A stretch of 13,216 bases of DNA from Candidatus Hodarchaeota archaeon. GTDB lineage: Archaea; Asgardarchaeota; Heimdallarchaeia; Hodarchaeales; Hodarchaeaceae. A model generated the notes under the pieces. That model had not been told where the DNA came from. It saw only the letters and a program-made list of their open reading frames with translations, and made no database searches. Numbering within the stretch: the first letter of the stretch is position 1; each line of letters begins with the position of its first letter. Position numbers and translations under genes: made by a program. Location: positions 1 through 13,216 of the forward strand of contig JAHQWW010000108.1 of assembly GCA_029856365.1 (NCBI GenBank). The letters are read 5' to 3'. Below are positions 1 to 13,216 of this stretch, piece by piece.

Positions 1-2
1 GA

Positions 3-3000
3 AACACCACCAAAGGTGAGAAGTGGTATTTCACGGTTCAAGCATATGATGGGGAAGGCCTATCTACCATTATATCCCTAGCTGAAAACGTCACAATTCT
101 GAATACAGCCCCTTTGGCGAGTAACCTGACTCTCACAGCTAATCCCACCACTCTTGATGATTTGGTTGCAGCTTGGGACTACTTTGACATTGATAATGAC
201 CTCAGAGATGATGCTTTGGCACAGATTTATTGGTTCAAAAATGGTGAGAATCAAACTGCTTTGGCTAATCAAAAAGCTATTGGGTTCACCAATACCTCCA
301 AGAATCAGGTCTGGTGGTTTACCGTTCGTGTATCTGATGGTCAAGACTATTCTGGGCTTTATGAGTCAGCTCACATCCAGATTCTGAATAGTATTCCTGT
401 GGTCGAAAACTTGACAATTAGTATTTCAAATCCCAAGACGACAGATAAGTTAGTTGCACAGTGGGATGATAATGATAATGATAGCGACATCTTAAGCTAT
501 ACAATTAAATGGTATATCATGGGTGTGGGATTACAATCCGCCTATTCCGATTTAACAGCCGTTCCTGCCAGTGCTACTTCAAAGGGAGAGATTTGGTATT
601 ATACTCTGAAAGCGTTTGATGGGAGCGACTACTCCTCTGAAGAGACCCTTAGTCCTGGTGTACTCATCCTCAATACTGTTCCCATTGTTGAAGACTTTGC
701 TTTAACCCTGGATCCTCAAACAGCAAATGACCTCGTGGCTAGTTGGGATGCTGCTGATAATGATACTAGTGATACATTAACCTTCAATATCACATGGTAT
801 TTAGATGGGGAAATGAATTGCAGCTGGTTTACATCGGCGAGTAGTGCGATACTGGATGCAGGAAACACCACCAAAGGGGAGAAGTGGTATTTCACGGTCC
901 AAGCTTATGATGGAGAAGGGGTGTCCAGTATTATATCCCTAGCAGCGAATGTCACCATTCTAAACACCGCCCCAACGGCGAGTAACTTAATTATTACGTC
1001 CAATCCCACCACTCTTGATGACTTAACTGCGGATTGGGATTACTTCGATATTGACAATGATCTCAGAGATGACACATCAGCCCGGATTACTTGGTTCAAG
1101 AATGGGTTGAATCAAACCGTCTTGGCCAATCAGAAAGTCGTTGGAGCCACCAATACCTCTAAGAATCAGGTTTGGTGGTTCACAGTCCAAGTATTTGATG
1201 GGGAGAACTATTCGATAGGGATCTACGAGTCTGCCCACATTTCCATTCAGAACACAGTCCCCTATAGTTCCTCCGCTCTTCCCCTTCCCATGGATCCTAC
1301 GAAAGCGAATGGATTAGTGTTGAGTCTTCCTGCAATACTGTCTGTATTCTCGGACCCAGATCCGAGCGATGATCTCGAAGTGGTGCAAATTTGCTGGTAT
1401 AAAGAAGGTATTTTACAGGGAACGTTAAATGACTCGTTAATTGTACCTGGTACCCGCTTAACCAAAGGAGAGACGTGGAACTATTCGATTGTGCCTTTCG
1501 ATGGGGTTGACTATGGGGCGGTCTGTGTTTCTACTGAAATAGTCATCTTAAACTCGAAGCCAACGATTATCAACACCTATTTCATAGAAACAACCGTTAC
1601 TACCATTAGCGATCTCGTGATCAGCTTTCAAGCTGAGGATGCCGATGGAGATAATATTACCGTCTCAGGGGTGCACTGGTATCGATGGGAATTTCCAATT
1701 TGGGAGTACAATGCTACTTATGATGATTATGTGAGTCTCCCCGCTTCTGCCACCACCAAAGGAGAGAGCTGGAAATTTGAGCTTGCGGTCTCTGATGATA
1801 CAGATCAATCGGTATGGAGAGAGGCCGCGAAAGAGGCGGATATTATCAATAGTAGACCTCGCATTGATCCCTTTAGTATCACTCTGACGGGGGGCACCAC
1901 CACCTCGGATCCTTTACAGGTGAATTATACGTGGTCTGATGATGATCCTGGGGATAGTAATACCCAGACGATTATTACCTGGGAGAATAGTGGCGACTAT
2001 TTAGAGGATACTTATAGCACCACTTTGTCTGCAGAAAACACCACCGCGGGTGAACGGTGGTGGGTGACGATCACTCCGTATGATGGTGAGGCAGAGGGCG
2101 ACTCTGTCAACAGTAAACGGTATGGGATAAGTATTATTATTGGCAACACCCCTCCCAGTCTCGCGCCCGAGGACATCGAGATTAAGGGAGAGTTAAATGA
2201 GACAGAATATCAGGGGACGAGTTTTGGGACGGTATTCAATCTCAACCTTCACTACTCTGCGTCCGATCTGGATGGTGACCAGGGGGTTCCTGCGTATGAC
2301 TTATCTATCGTTGATGGGTTTGCCGTGGGCTCTGAATATCGGTGGTATCGAAATCGATCAGGAACAGTTATCAGTATTTCAGCTTTGAATGATAAAACAA
2401 CTGTCCCATTTTACTATACGCAAAAAGGGGATATTTGGTGGGTGCATGTGCGCCCCCGAGACTTTTATGGGGATTTTGGGGCGCCTCAAAATTCTTCACA
2501 GATTATCATTGGAAATACCGCGCCTCAAATAGTTGAATTACACTGGGTACGTCTTACCTATTATACCACCAACAACTTGGTGTTTGGTTATACGTTCTAT
2601 GACTACGATACCAAGGATACCCAACAGGGAGCATTTATCCGCTGGTATCGGAATGGCACTTATGTACCAGGCTTCGATAACACTACTGCAATTGCCTCTC
2701 AATTTACTAGAAAAGGGGAGGCATGGTATGCGAATATTAGTGTCTTTGATGGCGAATCCTATAGTACTTGGTATTATTTACTCAATATTACGATCCAGAA
2801 TTCTCCCCCGACTGTAACAAGTATTTTGTTGACCCCTATTTTTCCCAACACCACCCAACCTCTGATTACAACCTGGGCCTTTGTCGATGCCGATAATGAT
2901 TCCGAAAATCAAATTGAGGCGCTCATTCAATGGTACCGTAATGGGATCCTTGTAAACAGTCTTACGAATCACTCTAATGTTCCTTTTGAGTTGACTAACC

Positions 3001-3671
3001 GAGGGGAAAGCTGGTACTTCACGGTGCAAGTTACTGACGGGTATAATTACTCCATAATCGTTTATATGTCGAATGCCATTACCATTATTAACTCAGCGCC
3101 GACCGCGTTTGATCTTCAGATCAACCAGGGGGCCCTTAGTATCTATACAACTGACAGTCTAGCTCTGACCTGGAACTTTACAGATCCAGACGTTTTTGAT
3201 ATTGAGGATACATCCTCTGCTTTAATCCTTTGGTATTTGAATGGCATTGAGCAGTCAGCGTTCACAAATGCCACGGAGATTCCCGCCACGTATGTGATGA
3301 AAGGGCAACAGTGGATAGTTTCGATCAAAGTCTGTGATAATGGGGGGCTATGGAGTGAGTTCCTGAATTCGTCTCTTATGGTGATCAAGAACTCTGTTCC
3401 CACAATTACCATTCATGGAACTGCCCATCCTGAATTTATCATTGAGGATGAAGCGTTAGAAATTAACAGTAGCTTTTATAGCTATAACGATGAAGATGGG
3501 GACGAGAATCAACCAGTGATCGTGTGGTATTGTAATAATGAATTGATGCACCAAAACATCTGGGTTCTCTTGGCCAATGATACTGTTCCAGGGGATGTCT
3601 GGTATTATACGATTCAACCCTTTGATGGTACTGATTTTGGGGTCGAATGCATCTCACCCGAAATCTATGTT
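3..3671 (+). repeat. Tandem ~95-120-aa Ig/cadherin-like (AIR9 A9-like) repeats in gene 1: 12 complete + 1 partial
   Basis: Units start at the N-x-x-P motif at 102, 387, 672, 963, 1251, 1551, 1848, 2145, 2514, 2799, 3090 and 3390. Each has an acidic DxDxD-type loop and a strand-C Trp (mostly WY/WF); most end with (T)KG-x-x-W-x-(F/Y/V)-x-(V/I)-x-x-x-DG. Confidence 0.9.
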
Positions 3672-5084
3672 GAAAGTCGACCTGTGATCCATAGTTTTGT
3701 CGCGACCGCCCTTCCTGACACTGAGGGACACTATGAATTGGAAATCAATGTTACAGATTCTTACAATGAGATCAAACAGGTGGAATTCCTCTTGAGCCTC
3801 AATACCACCACGGAACTCTCTCCTTTCATCATTACTTCCCCTAAAAGTCCTGGTTCAACTCTTTGGCTCCTCGATTATACATTAGCTACTTATTCTTATC
3901 TCGAGACCCCAATTCTTGTCACCGTGACCGTTGTGACCAAAGTCACCTATTCTATCACCTATGAAATCCAATTGATCCAGTCTTTCACCTTTACACTCGA
4001 AGATAAAGCGCCTCCGCGCGTCCTCAATGCCTATTTTGAGATGAATGATGAGCTCAATCCCACCAACTTGACCTTTTATGCTGAGGTCCAGGACTTTGGT
4101 TCGGGGGTGGCAGAAGTCATTCTCTCTTATTACTTCCGCCCGAGTGAGGAGATCAACCAGACAGGGGGGAATGGTGCCGCCCTCCTCCAAGACGACCTGG
4201 AGTGGCTGGAGGTACCCATGACAGCTCAAGTAGCCAATGAAACGGGCCAGTTCCTCCTGTATATGGTGACAGTGGACTTTGTCCATGCTACCTCCAACCT
4301 CGATATTATCTATCGCCTCTCGACCGAAGATATGGCTGGCAATAGCAATCCAGTGGCGTTTGACATTCGAGACTATCCCCAACGCATTGATGCTCAACGA
4401 TTTATCTATCAAGCCCCAGGGCTTCCTGAATGGGTTCTCCTCGTGGCTGGTTTAGCTGTGTTCGTCATCTTTGTTGGCTCCATAGTCTACGTGAAATTCA
4501 TCCGTAAACCAGAGCTTGTTGGCCTGGATAAAGAATTAGTTCTAGCCAAAGTCCCGGACATCACTGAGGCGGAGGTGTTGGCAGCACTGGATACCCATAC
4601 TATTGGCGTGATCGTCAGCTTTTTCGATCAGAGACATGGCCCGATCCCGATTATCATCATACCTGAGATTCTGAAAGACAACTTTAACAAGCTGGTGGAT
4701 CTCTCGGATCGTTCGTTTAGTGGGACTGGGTTTGCTGATGACTTTGGTGTTGAGATCCCCTCGAGTTATGACTTTGTGTTGTCCCATGGAGTTCGTACCA
4801 GTGTGATGTCCTTCGGCTTTGCCCTAGAGCGGCCTGACTCTAGAGGAGGCCAAGAGAACCTTACCTGCAATATTATTGTCCATCAAGATCTCTTTCCATT
4901 GGTTCAATCTTTCCAGAAAGAGCTTCAACGTAAAGTCCACTCTCTTCATGTGAGAATGGACAAGAACCCCTCGGAAAAAGCCAAGATCCGCAAACAAGTT
5001 TTTGAGCTTAGGAAATTCGTGTCTAATATTATATTATCCTATACGAGCATTTATGGCACCACTGAATTACTAGAAGAAGACTAA
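3..5084 (+). CDS. Giant single-pass membrane protein, 5'-truncated: Ig/cadherin-like repeat stalk + TM helix + cytoplasmic uDENN/longin-like domain
   Basis: The frame of the track ORF 114..5084 is open from position 3 (NTTKGEKWYFTVQAYDGEGLSTIISLAENVTILNTAPL...). The TTG at 114 is therefore an internal Leu and the true start lies upstream of the window. Stop TAA at 5082-5084; at least 1693 aa. Repeats with N-x-x-P, DxDxD, WY/F-x-N/D-G, T-x-KG-x-x-W and (Y/F/S)DG motifs; hydrophobic WVLLVAGLAVFVIFVGSIVYV followed by KFIRK. Confidence 0.95.
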   Translation, partial: NTTKGEKWYFTVQAYDGEGLSTIISLAENVTILNTAPLASNLTLTANPTTLDDLVAAWDYFDIDNDLRDDALAQIYWFKNGENQTALANQKAIGFTNTSKNQVWWFTVRVSDGQDYSGLYESAHIQILNSIPVVENLTISISNPKTTDKLVAQWDDNDNDSDILSYTIKWYIMGVGLQSAYSDLTAVPASATSKGEIWYYTLKAFDGSDYSSEETLSPGVLILNTVPIVEDFALTLDPQTANDLVASWDAADNDTSDTLTFNITWYLDGEMNCSWFTSASSAILDAGNTTKGEKWYFTVQAYDGEGVSSIISLAANVTILNTAPTASNLIITSNPTTLDDLTADWDYFDIDNDLRDDTSARITWFKNGLNQTVLANQKVVGATNTSKNQVWWFTVQVFDGENYSIGIYESAHISIQNTVPYSSSALPLPMDPTKANGLVLSLPAILSVFSDPDPSDDLEVVQICWYKEGILQGTLNDSLIVPGTRLTKGETWNYSIVPFDGVDYGAVCVSTEIVILNSKPTIINTYFIETTVTTISDLVISFQAEDADGDNITVSGVHWYRWEFPIWEYNATYDDYVSLPASATTKGESWKFELAVSDDTDQSVWREAAKEADIINSRPRIDPFSITLTGGTTTSDPLQVNYTWSDDDPGDSNTQTIITWENSGDYLEDTYSTTLSAENTTAGERWWVTITPYDGEAEGDSVNSKRYGISIIIGNTPPSLAPEDIEIKGELNETEYQGTSFGTVFNLNLHYSASDLDGDQGVPAYDLSIVDGFAVGSEYRWYRNRSGTVISISALNDKTTVPFYYTQKGDIWWVHVRPRDFYGDFGAPQNSSQIIIGNTAPQIVELHWVRLTYYTTNNLVFGYTFYDYDTKDTQQGAFIRWYRNGTYVPGFDNTTAIASQFTRKGEAWYANISVFDGESYSTWYYLLNITIQNSPPTVTSILLTPIFPNTTQPLITTWAFVDADNDSENQIEALIQWYRNGILVNSLTNHSNVPFELTNRGESWYFTVQVTDGYNYSIIVYMSNAITIINSAPTAFDLQINQGALSIYTTDSLALTWNFTDPDVFDIEDTSSALILWYLNGIEQSAFTNATEIPATYVMKGQQWIVSIKVCDNGGLWSEFLNSSLMVIKNSVPTITIHGTAHPEFIIEDEALEINSSFYSYNDEDGDENQPVIVWYCNNELMHQNIWVLLANDTVPGDVWYYTIQPFDGTDFGVECISPEIYVESRPVIHSFVATALPDTEGHYELEINVTDSYNEIKQVEFLLSLNTTTELSPFIITSPKSPGSTLWLLDYTLATYSYLETPILVTVTVVTKVTYSITYEIQLIQSFTFTLEDKAPPRVLNAYFEMNDELNPTNLTFYAEVQDFGSGVAEVILSYYFRPSEEINQTGGNGAALLQDDLEWLEVPMTAQVANETGQFLLYMVTVDFVHATSNLDIIYRLSTEDMAGNSNPVAFDIRDYPQRIDAQRFIYQAPGLPEWVLLVAGLAVFVIFVGSIVYVKFIRKPELVGLDKELVLAKVPDITEAEVLAALDTHTIGVIVSFFDQRHGPIPIIIIPEILKDNFNKLVDLSDRSFSGTGFADDFGVEIPSSYDFVLSHGVRTSVMSFGFALERPDSRGGQENLTCNIIVHQDLFPLVQSFQKELQRKVHSLHVRMDKNPSEKAKIRKQVFELRKFVSNIILSYTSIYGTTELLEED
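3672..4430 (+). other. Two membrane-proximal beta-sandwich (Ig-like) domains of gene 1
   Basis: ESRPVIHSF... (3672) and DKAPPRV...AEVQDFGSGVAEV...TEDMAGNS (4002 onward). The D-x-x-PP / D-x-x-SGV / D-x-AGN pattern is typical of prokaryotic Ig-like domains. Confidence 0.6.
4431..4493 (+). other. Transmembrane helix of gene 1
   Basis: 21 uncharged, mostly hydrophobic residues WVLLVAGLAVFVIFVGSIVYV followed by K-F-I-R-K. The positive-inside rule places the C-terminus in the cytoplasm. Confidence 0.9.
4596..5081 (+). other. Cytoplasmic uDENN/longin-like domain
   Basis: beta1-turn-beta2 motif IGVIVSFFDQRHGPIPIII (4602 onward), helix NKLVDLSDRSF, strand-loop-strand VMSFGFALERPDSRGGQENLTCNIIV (4803 onward), then amphipathic helices. 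This resembles the F-D/H-x-x-x-G-P and x-R-G signatures of uDENN/longin domains in folliculin/SMCR8, NPRL2, Avl9/Afi1 and DENND6-type proteins. Confidence 0.7.
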
Positions 5085-5128
5085 GTACGTATGTATATAT
5101 CAAACTACTATTATTGATTGTTATCAGA

Positions 5129-5168
5129 TAGAATAATCCAAAAGGAGGGATTATCTAGAATTTTTCTT
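5129..5168 (+). terminator. Possible terminator of gene 1 (weak hairpin + oligo-T)
   Basis: ATAATCC (5133-5139) pairs with GGATTAT (5148-5154), extendable by TAG/CTA with a 1-nt bulge, followed by TTTTTCTT at 5161-5168. The stem is AT-rich, so support is weak. Confidence 0.3.
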
Positions 5169-5379
5169 AAACTCTTAATCCAAAAATATCGCAGCTTGAT
5201 TGACATATTGATCCAATGTGTAAAAATATCCCTTGCAATCAATCTGGTAAATTTCGCTGGATATGATCATACTAGATGAGTTTCCAAAGCTGAGCGTGAA
5301 TACTAAGTGAAATTATCTTAGTTCAGGAAAATGAATTCCGATCCTTACCTATCTATCAATTTGAATAGTCTAAGGGTTT

Positions 5380-5385
5380 AGGAGA
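5380..5385 (+). promoter_or_regulatory. Shine-Dalgarno-like site for gene 2
   Basis: AGGAGA ends 9 nt upstream of the ATG at 5395. Confidence 0.55.
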
Positions 5386-5394
5386 AGAAAATTA

Positions 5395-5478
5395 ATGAAA
5401 TATCACAAAAAAAATCTTATATCTATTTTTTTTCTTCTTATTTTTATAACTAATATTCTTATAATACTTACCCCCGTT
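5395..5478 (+). other. N-terminal signal peptide / signal anchor of gene 2
   Basis: Basic N-region MKYHKK followed by the hydrophobic stretch LISIFFLLIFITNILIILTPV. No obvious A-x-A cleavage site. Confidence 0.75.
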
Positions 5479-8400
5479 CAACGTGAAGGTTTTTTTGACT
5501 CCAATGGATTCATGGTAGAGCTATTAAAGGGATTTGGATTTATTAGGGAGAGAAAGGAGACTTATCATGATGTACCTCGCCTTTTGGGCACAAATTCTCA
5601 TTCTAATAACACTGATCGTTTTGGAATTCGTGCTGCAACTCAATCAGAGAACTATGTTCCTGGTTGGGCTGATAGTAGATGGAAATTTCGCAAAAATATC
5701 ACTATTGACTATTCTAAAGTTAGTGCTGATTTAACTAATTTTCCTGTACTTATTAATGTCTTCGATAGTGATCTTCAAAGCGACGCTCAAGCCAATGGTA
5801 ACGATATTATGTTTTCTGATGCTTCAGGAAACATCTTAGATAATGAAATAGAATTATATAATAGAATATACAACTCTACTCATGCTCATTTAGTAGCCTG
5901 GGTTAAAGTTAATCTTTCTAGCACCCAAGACACAATGATTTCCATGTATTTTGGCAATCCTACTACTTCTAATCAAGAAAATGTAAATGATGTTTGGGGC
6001 GACAATTATGTAGGAGTTTGGCATCTAACAGAGAGTGGTACTGGAACTCTTAATGAATTTAAAGATAGTAGTCAATATAATAACCATGGACAGGGAGGAG
6101 AGGGGAACTCTTCTTTTGTTCCTACCAAAGTGGGGGGAAAAATAGGTTATGGTCAGGATTTCAACAATTTAGATGGGAAATATGATTTAATTGACTGTGG
6201 CAACGATTCAAGCTTCAATATAACAGGATATTCTATTACCTTAGAAGCCTGGATACACCATAATATTACTCCTCAATCCGTTTTTTATGGAATCATGAAT
6301 CATAAAGGTTGGTATGATGGATATAGTTTATGGATAGAACAAGATTCATTAAAACTCGCATTTAATTTACCTGGAGAGACACATAAATTACTGAGTGCAG
6401 CAGATATCACCACAAATACATGGCATCACATTGTTGCAACGTATGATGGTGCATGGATGAGGATTTACATTGATGGAGTACAGGATCTAAATACTTTAGC
6501 CAAAAGTGATAGTATTGAACCCTCATCCTCTGAACAGGATTTTTGGATTGGTCACGGGGATCAACCGAAAGATAAAGGTTGGAGCGCTGAATGGGATGGA
6601 CAAATCGATGAAGTTCGCATTTCTAACATCACTCACAATTCAGATTGGATCAAAACTGAATATGAGAACCAAAATGATCCACAATCTTTCTATTCTGTTG
6701 GTACAAAACAAAACTATGAAAATTATAATTGGGCATTCCCAATGTTAAACAATCGAAAAAAGATTGTAATAAATGCTAATAAAGTCAGTTCTGACTTAAC
6801 AGATTTCGCTTTACTCATTGATTTATATGATACCGATTTGCACAATACTGAGAAAGTCCAAGCTGATGGTGATGATATTCTCTTTACCGATGTTTCTGGT
6901 ACCAAGTTAAATCATGAAATAGAATCCTTTGATCAGAACTCTAATTCAAGTCATGCTCATTTATTGGCATGGGTTGAAATTCCAAATCTTTCAAAAACAG
7001 AAGACACATCAATTTTCATGTATTATGGAAATGATGAAGTTAGTTCTCTAGAGAATCCTTCTGCTGTGTGGAATAACAATTACATAGGTGTATGGCATTT
7101 AAGTGAGACGAACGGACCCGTTTATGACTCAACCTCACATGGATATGATGGTTTGGTTACAGGGGCATCATATAGTTCTCCTTCCTTCATAGATGGTGGA
7201 TATGAATTTATCAGGTCAGAAACAGACTTAATAGAGATGCCTGAAACTGCCAATGCCCTTCAATTAACAGATTTTACTGTTGAGGCTTGGATAAAAACTC
7301 CAGACTCAACTGTACCAGATGATTACTATATTGTTACGCAAAGTCTATATAGTGCTACTACTTCATGGGCCCTTAATATAGCTGATGATTCGGGGCATGA
7401 AAACGAGGCTAGATTTACAACAAGAGTAGCCAGTCAACAAATTGTATATTCGAATTTTCCAGTTACTGGTAATGAATGGCATCATCTTGTTGGAGTAAGA
7501 AATTCTACATCGCTTCTCATTTATGTGGATGGTTCGTTAGCTGGTTCAGAAACTGATAACGAGGCAGGCCAGACTCTCCAATCACCTGTAAATGTTTCAA
7601 TTGGTTCAGCTATTAATACTAGTTCAGAAGATTTTAATGGTATTATTGATGAAGTTCGGATTTCTAATATTGCCCGTTCTGCAGCTTGGCTTGAAACACA
7701 GTATAACAATCAATTTGACCCTAATAGTTTCTACTCGGTTGAAATGGAAGAGTACTCACCTATTGAAGATGATTGGGCATTTCCACAGTTTAACTATAGA
7801 AAACCTATTACAATAAAGTCTGATCAGGTGAGTGCTGATCTAACTAATTTTCCAGTTCTCCTTAACATCACTGATCCTGACCTTCATGATAATGGAAAAG
7901 TCCAAGTTGATGGTGATGATATTCTTTTCACAGATAACTTAGGAACCAAACTTGATCATGAAATTGAACTCTTCGATCAGACCGGGAACGGTAGCCATGC
8001 ACATTTGGTCGCTTGGGTGAGGGTGCCAAATCTATTGTCAACTTATAACACCAATATTACCATGTACTATGGAAATGATGTTGTTGATTCCCAAGAGTAT
8101 CATCAGGGCGTTTGGGATACAAATTATGTTGGAGTGTGGCATATGAATCAAAATCCTCCTCTGATCGAAGATAGTACCTCCCCAAATAGTGATGGGACTA
8201 CTTATGGATCAATGACTTCCGCAGATCAGATAACAGGACAAATAGATGGCTCACTTGATTTTGATGCTACAGATGACTATGTAGATTGCGGAGATCCAAC
8301 TGAACTGCAAATAACAGGCGCAATGACAGTCGAAGCTTGGTTGTATGCTGATTTTGTTGGTAATGACTACCTAGTTGGAAGAAACGGTCCAACGAATGAA

Positions 8401-13216: not shown

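Follow-up and report, generated by a model that had tools for sequence, protein, structure and literature searches.

A tandem array of giant surface proteins with predicted longin tails in a Hodarchaeales genome, and a possible link to Rag-family GTPases

The stretch of DNA analysed here (the window) is an entire contig of 13,216 bases (JAHQWW010000108.1; C135 of genome G000 in our numbering) from a fragmented metagenome-assembled genome (MAG) of Candidatus Hodarchaeota archaeon. The MAG comprises 204 contigs and 4.24 Mb, with 83.6% completeness and 4.2% contamination, and the closest database relatives are named Hodarchaeales, Hodarchaeum, Heimdallarchaeota or other Asgard lineages. The window contains two large genes on the same strand, gene 1, which is open at its 5' end, and gene 2, which is open at its 3' end. 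The evidence supports its being one junction within a series of about five tandemly arranged genes for giant surface proteins. Each protein would have approximately 4,000–4,800 residues and form a single-pass type-I membrane protein, with a head of lectin-type modules, a long repeat stalk, one transmembrane (TM) helix and a cytoplasmic longin domain. Genes with this tail recur next to genes for Rag-family GTPases. We consider it moderately probable that the whole picture holds, that is, that these are giant receptors, arranged as a tandem array, whose longin tails regulate Rag-family GTPases.

An earlier, sequence-only reading of the window had noted that the repeat units at 672–962 (gene 1) and 12670–12960 (gene 2) align without gaps at 65 of 97 residues, and had taken the two genes for paralogues of which one is seen in its C-terminal half and the other in its N-terminal half. 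BLASTP reproduced the alignment, with 65/97 identities and 0 gaps at an E value of 4e-45. When 16 stalk units were aligned together, this pair was 67% identical, against 19–40% for most other pairs. The common repeat order that had been proposed was also recovered, as units 1–4 of gene 1 (105–1253) are collinear with units 3–6 of gene 2 (12103–13215), with 196/373 identities (53%), 2% gaps and an E value of 5e-123. Because one pair stands far above the remainder and four successive units are collinear, the similarity between the genes is positional, beyond repeat noise.

The assignment of the two halves agrees with P0201, a complete open reading frame (ORF) of 4196 residues in the same-genus genome G001 (= G140), onto which both open ORFs of the window map. 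P0201 unites all parts in one gene, in the order signal, LamG and MAM head, a linker like that of gene 2, stalk, TM helix and tail, and thus displays the whole signal-(DUF2341-LamG)n-stalk-TM-tail layout of around 4000 residues that had been predicted for each gene. Gene 1 is collinear with its residues 2507–4196; the first 150 residues of gene 1 align to 2507–2656 at 79%, and the tails are 88% identical. The last 150 residues of gene 2 align to 1897–2045 at 84%. Another contig of the MAG, C147, starts at residue 2064 of P0201 (77%), approximately 18 residues past the point where gene 2 stops, and runs for 2132 residues to a TM helix and a tail. By collinearity, gene 2 most likely continues into C147 and ends in a TM helix and longin domain, as the earlier reading had asked of it, with a probable full length of approximately 4757 residues. 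Other complete relatives have 3065–4342 residues, and one of 3112 residues carries DUF2341, LamG and the tail. Several named database proteins also combine PF13385, PF10102 and the tail. Within the genus, the longest ORFs with the family tail reach 10,069 and 10,431 residues.

The head, stalk and membrane topology of the proteins follow from the two genes themselves (coordinates in Table 1). The LamG head proposed for gene 2 was retrieved as five modules, with Laminin_G_3 (PF13385; E 1.9e-92, 307.7 bits) and DUF2341 (PF10102; E 4.2e-43, 146.1 bits) each matching five stretches above the Pfam gathering score. The linker behind it is highly similar to the corresponding region of P0201. Of the immunoglobulin (Ig) stalk of the earlier reading, the repeat stalk stood, with 13 units in gene 1 and six in gene 2, and the Ig label found weak backing. 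The units are acidic, probably bear many N-glycans and share the motifs P..L / W.D.D.D / I.WY.NG / T.KG..W / DG, and gene 1 contains an internal three-unit duplication (window 1–600 matches 862–1240 at 78%). An fn3 match scored 28.6 bits on a 499-residue piece (cut-off 25) and only 17.2 on the whole protein. A profile search against the PDB gave the stalk unit no significant match to any solved structure, with matches of E 0.35–1 to Ig domains of titin and VEGFR2. Look-alikes of the unit in the Atlas are mostly unnamed, and a few carry Ig_2 or Big_9 in 10–15% of their members. An Ig nature of the stalk is weakly suggested, by low fn3 and Big matches. Cadherin (PF00028) was absent from the Pfam results at E ≤ 0.01 for both proteins and at E ≤ 10 for the first 499 residues. 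The membrane-proximal region has no unit detectable with the stalk profile, and no Pfam family matched 3639–4493. N-glycosylation sequons exceed expectation in the ectodomains (42 against 17.7 in gene 1, 62 against 39 in gene 2) and are not enriched in the tail, which fits a topology with the N terminus outside and the C terminus inside.

The tandem arrangement is repeated elsewhere in the MAG. Between gene 1 and gene 2 lie a stop codon, an AT-rich spacer with a conserved box, a GGAG box and an ATG that opens a signal-like segment. Contigs C147, C158 and C155 have the same layout, namely a 5'-open tail gene, a spacer and a 3'-open head gene on the same strand. On C136, a 3'-open head comes after genes of other kinds, and C90 holds part of a tail gene only, which brings the total to five heads and five tails. 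The heads are 37–45% identical and differ in the number and type of their modules (the other heads have three to four LamG modules), whereas the tails are 73–88% identical, in line with the different heads on a common tail that had been proposed. As the heads are only 37–45% identical, these are distinct paralogues and not strain variants. Common to all five head genes are the N-terminal pattern, a GGAG box ahead of the start codon and, further upstream, a box of 27 bp. It is highly improbable that the tandem paralogues are an assembly artefact, in which a single gene was wrongly circularised or joined, or strain variants were binned together. Both contig ends do lie inside repeats, the MAG is fragmented, and the end of gene 2 and the start of gene 1 map to one gene of a relative, P0201. 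However, the two points do not abut there (gene 2 ends at 2045, gene 1 starts at 2507), while C147 does abut gene 2. The genes are also separated by a clean stop, boxed spacer, GGAG, start codon and signal segment; four contigs with differing heads carry the same junction; and tail-to-head junctions were found in other genomes (L024, L025 and L029). With its divergent heads and conserved tails, the array also illustrates the way in which receptors of this kind diversify.

The 27-bp box, GATTATCTAGAATTyTTCTTAAAAyCT, lies approximately 220 bp upstream of every head gene start, with copies at window 5149–5175, C136:7350-7376 and C155:5969-5995 and diverged ones upstream of the C147 and C158 heads. 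At ≤2 mismatches, every occurrence in the 4.2-Mb assembly is in the upstream region of a head gene. The box may serve these genes as a common regulatory site, or it may belong to a long leader. The C155 head (2–5734, minus strand; L074) combines four DUF2341-LamG modules with a lectin-type module of jelly-roll fold (Toxin_R_bind_N, E 1.3e-13), and it also gave a weak pentaxin-like match. P0201 has a MAM domain instead. The heads are mosaics of different lectin-type modules. Three further genes with the tail (approximately 1000, 1550 and 2200–8800 residues), more distantly related, form another tandem set at G000:C52:8666-16742, which is conserved across the genus (G140:C13, G120:C87, G131:C14).

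The tail was modelled with AlphaFold2 (AF2). With a 41-sequence alignment, the model reached a predicted local distance difference test (pLDDT) score of 90.7; the single-sequence model (38.5) was unusable, and only the alignment-based one was used. After two short helices, its elements follow the order β-β-α-β-β-β-α-α (strands 36–45, 49–56, helix 58–78, strands 88–95, 101–112, 120–130, helices 131–157 and 162–187), which is the five-stranded antiparallel sheet of the longin fold, β1-β2-α1-β3-β4-β5-α2-α3. The top Foldseek matches were FLCN-FNIP2, a Lokiarchaeal Roadblock-Longin protein, GATOR1, Lst4 and SEA-complex longins. VIA, which is independent of Foldseek, ranked 8yqg first (Z 13.6, root-mean-square deviation (rmsd) 3.0 Å over 141 residues), with FLCN (11.8), C9orf72-SMCR8 (11.1), NPRL2 (10.9), Lst4 (10.8), DENND1A (9.0) and VAMP7 (8.4) below it, and the top 34 rows were essentially all longin-type domains. 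The tail had previously been read as uDENN/longin. Confidence in the model and the two structure searches bear out the longin, and the uDENN label is to be dropped: the protein stops 196 residues past the TM helix, right after helix α3, there is no DENN core, and DENND1A matches through its longin part alone. The structural evidence points to a longin of FLCN/NPRL2/SMCR8 type as the proper label. A PAS reading, raised by LOV/PAS entries in the Foldseek list, was rejected (rmsd 11–42 Å, absent from the top of the VIA list). Searched alone against Pfam, the tail returned nothing meaningful (DUF1664, E 0.051) and no PF11704 match.

Among 162 tails, conservation was near complete at G49 (162/162), P50 (159/162), P52 (162/162), R117 (159/162) and R173 (160/162). 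G49 and P50 are the first residues of strand 2 in the model. PMC12290439 places the GP motif where the second strand begins or in the loop that leads into it, and describes it as specific to FLCN, NPRL2, SMCR8 and C9orf72, which are catalytic longins, and to one class of longins from Heimdallarchaeia. The tail has this GP motif of longins of the GTPase-activating protein (GAP) type. In such longins a catalytic arginine finger (R164 in FLCN, R78 in NPRL2) lies close to the GP motif in space; R117 of the tail, in the β4-β5 loop within RGG.EN, is a candidate for it. Alternatively, the tail could act on a small GTPase as an exchange factor for guanine nucleotides (GEF) or scaffold, in the manner of TRAPP, Mon1-Ccz1 or DENN proteins, or on an Arf-like or Rab-like class, and not as an FLCN/NPRL2-type GAP. 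Most longin platforms are GEFs (PMC10933270), the longins of DENND1A, TRAPP and Mon1-Ccz1 were matched at Z 6.7–9.0, and Asgard genomes hold many Arf- and Rab-like GTPases. Nevertheless, the best structural matches are GAP-type longins, longins of TRAPP, adaptin and DENND lack the GP motif (PMC12290439), and the conserved neighbouring GTPases described below pass the Pfam Gtr1_RagA cut-off with stronger scores than for Arf. We regard this alternative as rather improbable.

The tail was found exclusively at the C terminus, in proteins of 200–5809 residues that form 147 clusters at 50% identity, among 1.84 billion representatives searched. It is present in 34 of 150 sampled genomes of the phylum and in all seven genomes of the genus (7/7), with 3–11 copies in each. 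The MAG also encodes a stand-alone, soluble tail paralogue of 186 residues, with neither TM helix nor ectodomain (C49:5473-6033; L020). It keeps the GP motif, has SESPDNKD where others have RP.ARGG.EN and hence lacks R117; judging by these residues, it could be a non-catalytic longin partner.

Rag-family GTPases are the most widespread neighbours of the tail genes, with 27 ORFs in 18 of the 39 related loci as determined by ORF clustering (the loci were gathered by a search with a five-sequence tail alignment). The usual layout consists of a Rag-family gene of approximately 740 residues, convergent and 27–89 bp from the stop of the giant gene, together with a divergent gene of approximately 300–310 residues. 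In L033 and L034, a 300-residue Rag-family gene follows 57 bp downstream on the same strand. Both size classes score above the PF04670 cut-off and more strongly than for Arf or Roc: 137.2 bits for the 300-residue and 102.3 for the 737-residue protein of C12, 134 for the 300-residue protein of L034, and 107.3 and 127.2 for the 755- and 312-residue proteins of L035. Within the genus, nearly every copy of the 740-residue gene lies 39–100 bp from a tail gene, and some genomes have several separate pairs, which suggests that the pair duplicates as a unit. Chance adjacency is unlikely, given that the closed genome G002 has only nine strong PF04670 matches in 4.9 Mb. In the MAG itself, a 312-residue Gtr1/RagA-family GTPase (PF04670, E 3.9e-26, 92.4 bits) is encoded divergently to the C136 head gene and is followed by a 1030-residue HEAT/TPR protein. 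A 737- and 300-residue Rag pair is located on C12, behind a tubulin-like three-gene module, and C12 begins where the syntenic stretch downstream of the giant gene begins in a relative. Any of the tail contigs C135, C147 and C90 may precede C12, all three being approximately 73–79% identical to both candidate orthologues. In the relative, a metallophosphoesterase gene lies in between, and the MAG contains no close copy of it.

Some features of these neighbourhoods were recorded in passing. A 312–316-residue Gtr1/RagA GTPase and a HEAT/TPR protein of approximately 900–1030 residues lie beside a longin-tailed giant gene in three genomes, in differing orientations (C136:3096-7144 (L071), L032:1722-5732 and L036). 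The three-gene module of C12 (C12:43-9425; L075), syntenic with L022:8561-16600, encodes proteins of 313, 1143 and 448 residues, the last a tubulin/FtsZ-family GTPase (PF00091, E 6.8e-20), and sits between the expected position of the giant gene and the Rag pair. In G063:C101, from the same genus, a tail remnant with four in-frame stops (14866–15138) lies beside an intact 737-residue Rag-family gene (15130–16638) and may be a decayed receptor gene.

Several findings weigh against a receptor that acts on Rag-family GTPases. The window contains no GTPase gene. Among related loci whose flanks are complete, approximately half lack a Rag gene within 10 kb. Of the four tail loci found in G002, only one has a Rag pair nearby (1/4), and the linked loci come from related genomes and are thus not independent events. 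Direct adjacency in the MAG is seen only at C136, on the head side, while the C12 link is by synteny with a relative. At the sequence level, the tail has no significant match to FLCN or NPRL2: PF11704 (Folliculin) matched 3 of 41 family tails at E ≤ 1, the best at 0.0082, below cut-off, and a 41-tail profile searched against PDB sequences retrieved no longin, only spurious reverse gyrase matches. The reconstruction has its own gap, as neither end of C135 overlaps exactly with another contig and the link between gene 2 and C147 is given by P0201 collinearity only.

The principal rival holds that the proteins are purely structural adhesins or surface fibres (S-layer, glycocalyx). Their longin tail would regulate no GTPase and would only anchor them, sort them or bring them together as oligomers, for example through pairing of longins or through binding to some factor of the cytoskeleton or of trafficking, and the Rag genes would be inherited synteny with no coupling. 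More than 95% of the protein is ectodomain and adhesin-like, with LamG modules, repeats and sequons, and cultured Asgard archaea commonly have giant proteins of adhesin type that resemble fibronectin (bioRxiv 10.1101/2025.07.22.663070). Longins also have roles unrelated to GTPases, in SNAREs and adaptor sigma/mu subunits, which were matched lower in the VIA list, and the loci that lack a Rag neighbour are compatible with this explanation. On the other hand, the tail is the most conserved part of the family (73–88% against 37–45% for the heads), its invariant loop residues (GP, R117) are typical of catalytic longins and not of SNARE or adaptor ones, and pairs of tail and Rag genes recur in several copies per genome at a spacing of 39–100 bp. 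We consider a purely structural role unlikely, if still a serious contender.

In the reading favoured here, the heads would bind extracellular glycans or surfaces, and the membrane-tethered longin would dock and regulate Rag-family GTPases, most likely as a GAP-type platform and perhaps in dimeric form. A single GTPase switch in the cytoplasm would in that case receive the signals of different heads, or be recruited by them to sites of surface contact. Regulation of the neighbouring GTPases by the tail is what we infer from the linkage, and the common cytoplasmic output proposed earlier likewise stays conjectural, with the Rag-family neighbourhood as its concrete candidate. More specifically, and as a tentative proposal about which we are doubtful, the tails could be membrane-tethered FLCN/NPRL2-type longin GAPs, or docking platforms, for the Rag pair, forming a prokaryotic outside-in Rag pathway. 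Such a pathway, if true, would be equivalent in its topology to the signalling from lumen to cytosol that takes place at lysosomes of eukaryotes, and the sensing of nutrients by Rag/GATOR/folliculin could have arisen from it.

Small GTPases are numerous in Asgard archaea, and so are longin or roadblock proteins. Genome layout seldom shows which regulator goes with which Asgard GTPase, and the GTPase genes are generally not in operons with longin genes (PMC10933270). For the longins of Heimdallarchaeia that carry the GP motif, published work has left open whether their targets are Arf-like or Rag-like GTPases (PMC12290439). The tail family offers a hard-wired candidate pair in this respect, a receptor-tail longin repeatedly encoded beside Rag-family genes, and the two partners, as small soluble domains, are amenable to expression and assay. 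Should the link hold, it would tie cell-surface sensing to a switch of Rag type in the organisms known to be most closely related to eukaryotes, and bear on the origin of lysosomal Rag/GATOR/folliculin signalling.

Table 1. Features of the two genes and their junction, by position in the 13,216-base window
Feature	Position	Strand	Description and basis
Gene 1	3..5084	+	5'-open at contig end, 1693 residues; stalk, membrane-proximal region, TM, longin tail, stop (ORF list)
Gene 1 stalk	3..3671	+	13 units of ~95 residues, the first partial; self-profile search
Membrane-proximal ectodomain region	3672..4430	+	Non-repeat, ~250 residues; conserved in paralogues and P0201
Single TM helix	4431..4493	+	WVLLVAGLAVFVIFVGSIVYV, then KFIRK (positive-inside); sole hydrophobic 19-mer window >2.0 in gene 1
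Cytoplasmic longin domain, FLCN/NPRL2/SMCR8-like (predicted)	4494..5081	+	196 residues; AF2 model, Foldseek and VIA matches
GP motif	4638-4643	+	G49-P50, within HGPIPI
Arg117	4842-4844	+	Near-invariant; conservation over 162 tails
Arg173	5010-5012	+	Conservation over 162 tails
Intergenic spacer	5085..5394	+	310 bp, GC ~32%; 27-bp box 5149-5175, GGAG box 5381-5384, ATG at 5395
Gene 2	5395..13215	+	3'-open at contig end, 2607 residues; signal, five lectin-type modules, linker domains, stalk start
N-terminal hydrophobic signal or anchor segment	5410..5481	+	After MKYHKK, residues 6-29; sole hydrophobic segment of gene 2
Five DUF2341 + Laminin_G_3 modules	5665..10929	+	~350 residues each, starting near 5665, 6730, 7774, 8821 and 9886; Pfam
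Linker, probable Ig-like domains	10930..11514	+	~195 residues between head and stalk; Big_13 and Big_7 matches weak, below cut-off
First six stalk units of gene 2	11518..13212	+	Self-profile search; units 3-6 collinear with gene 1 units 1-4

GC content is 32–40% over the spacer and LamG head (5001–11000) against 43–49% in the stalk and tail (1–5000 and 11000–13216); the drop may stem from amino-acid composition, or from exchange of stalk and tail segments among paralogues. Minus-strand ORFs of 81–176 residues inside both genes were taken as chance frames, and an Rfam search of the window gave no match.

Among known systems, animal neurexins and FAT/CELSR-type receptors resemble the proteins in general logic, with LamG and beta-sandwich repeats outside, one membrane pass and a signalling tail. 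The earlier reading had drawn this likeness by analogy only and was right to do so. No cadherin, EGF or GPCR domain was detected among the Pfam matches of the gene 1 and gene 2 proteins, and the PDB profile search gave the stalk unit no significant match. The likeness is analogy, not homology. Closer at hand are the DUF2341 and Laminin_G_3 surface proteins of bacteria and archaea. Gene 2 likewise has such modules behind a signal, whereas here they make up only the head of a far longer protein that ends in a cytoplasmic domain of eukaryotic type.

The tail has the same predicted fold as the eukaryotic longin GAPs (FLCN-FNIP, NPRL2 of GATOR1 and C9orf72-SMCR8), which are its best eukaryotic structural matches (Z 10.9–11.8). 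It likewise has the GP motif where strand 2 begins, and its near-invariant arginine is a candidate counterpart of their catalytic one. Eukaryotic FLCN and GATOR1 act on substrates of the Gtr1/RagA family, the family to which the tail genes are linked. In contrast to these GAPs, the tail has no DENN or other C-terminal domain and no significant sequence similarity to them, and it is tethered to the membrane on a giant extracellular protein, whereas theirs are soluble complexes recruited to lysosomes.

Within Asgard archaea, longins of FLCN/SMCR8 and NPRL2 type have already been reported (Liu et al. preprint 10.1101/2020.10.19.343400; PMC12290439). The Lokiarchaeal Roadblock-Longin 8yqg is the best structural match of all (Z 13.6), and by its motif the tail belongs to the same class as the Asgard GP-motif longins, which are described as frequent in Heimdallarchaeia (PMC12290439). 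Forms reported from Asgard archaea are soluble longins, longin-DENN proteins resembling FLCN, and longins fused with GTPases or with domains of two-component signalling; the tail sits instead on a LamG/repeat ectodomain. In the literature, of which our coverage is incomplete, we found neither a fusion of a LamG/repeat ectodomain of 3000–10000 residues to a TM helix and longin nor a conserved pairing with Rag genes. NPRL2- and FLCN-type longins, signalling fusions, Rag-like GTPases and giant adhesin-like proteins were thus already known in Asgard archaea, and what this contig adds is the array, the reconstruction from head to tail and the probable join of gene 2 to C147.

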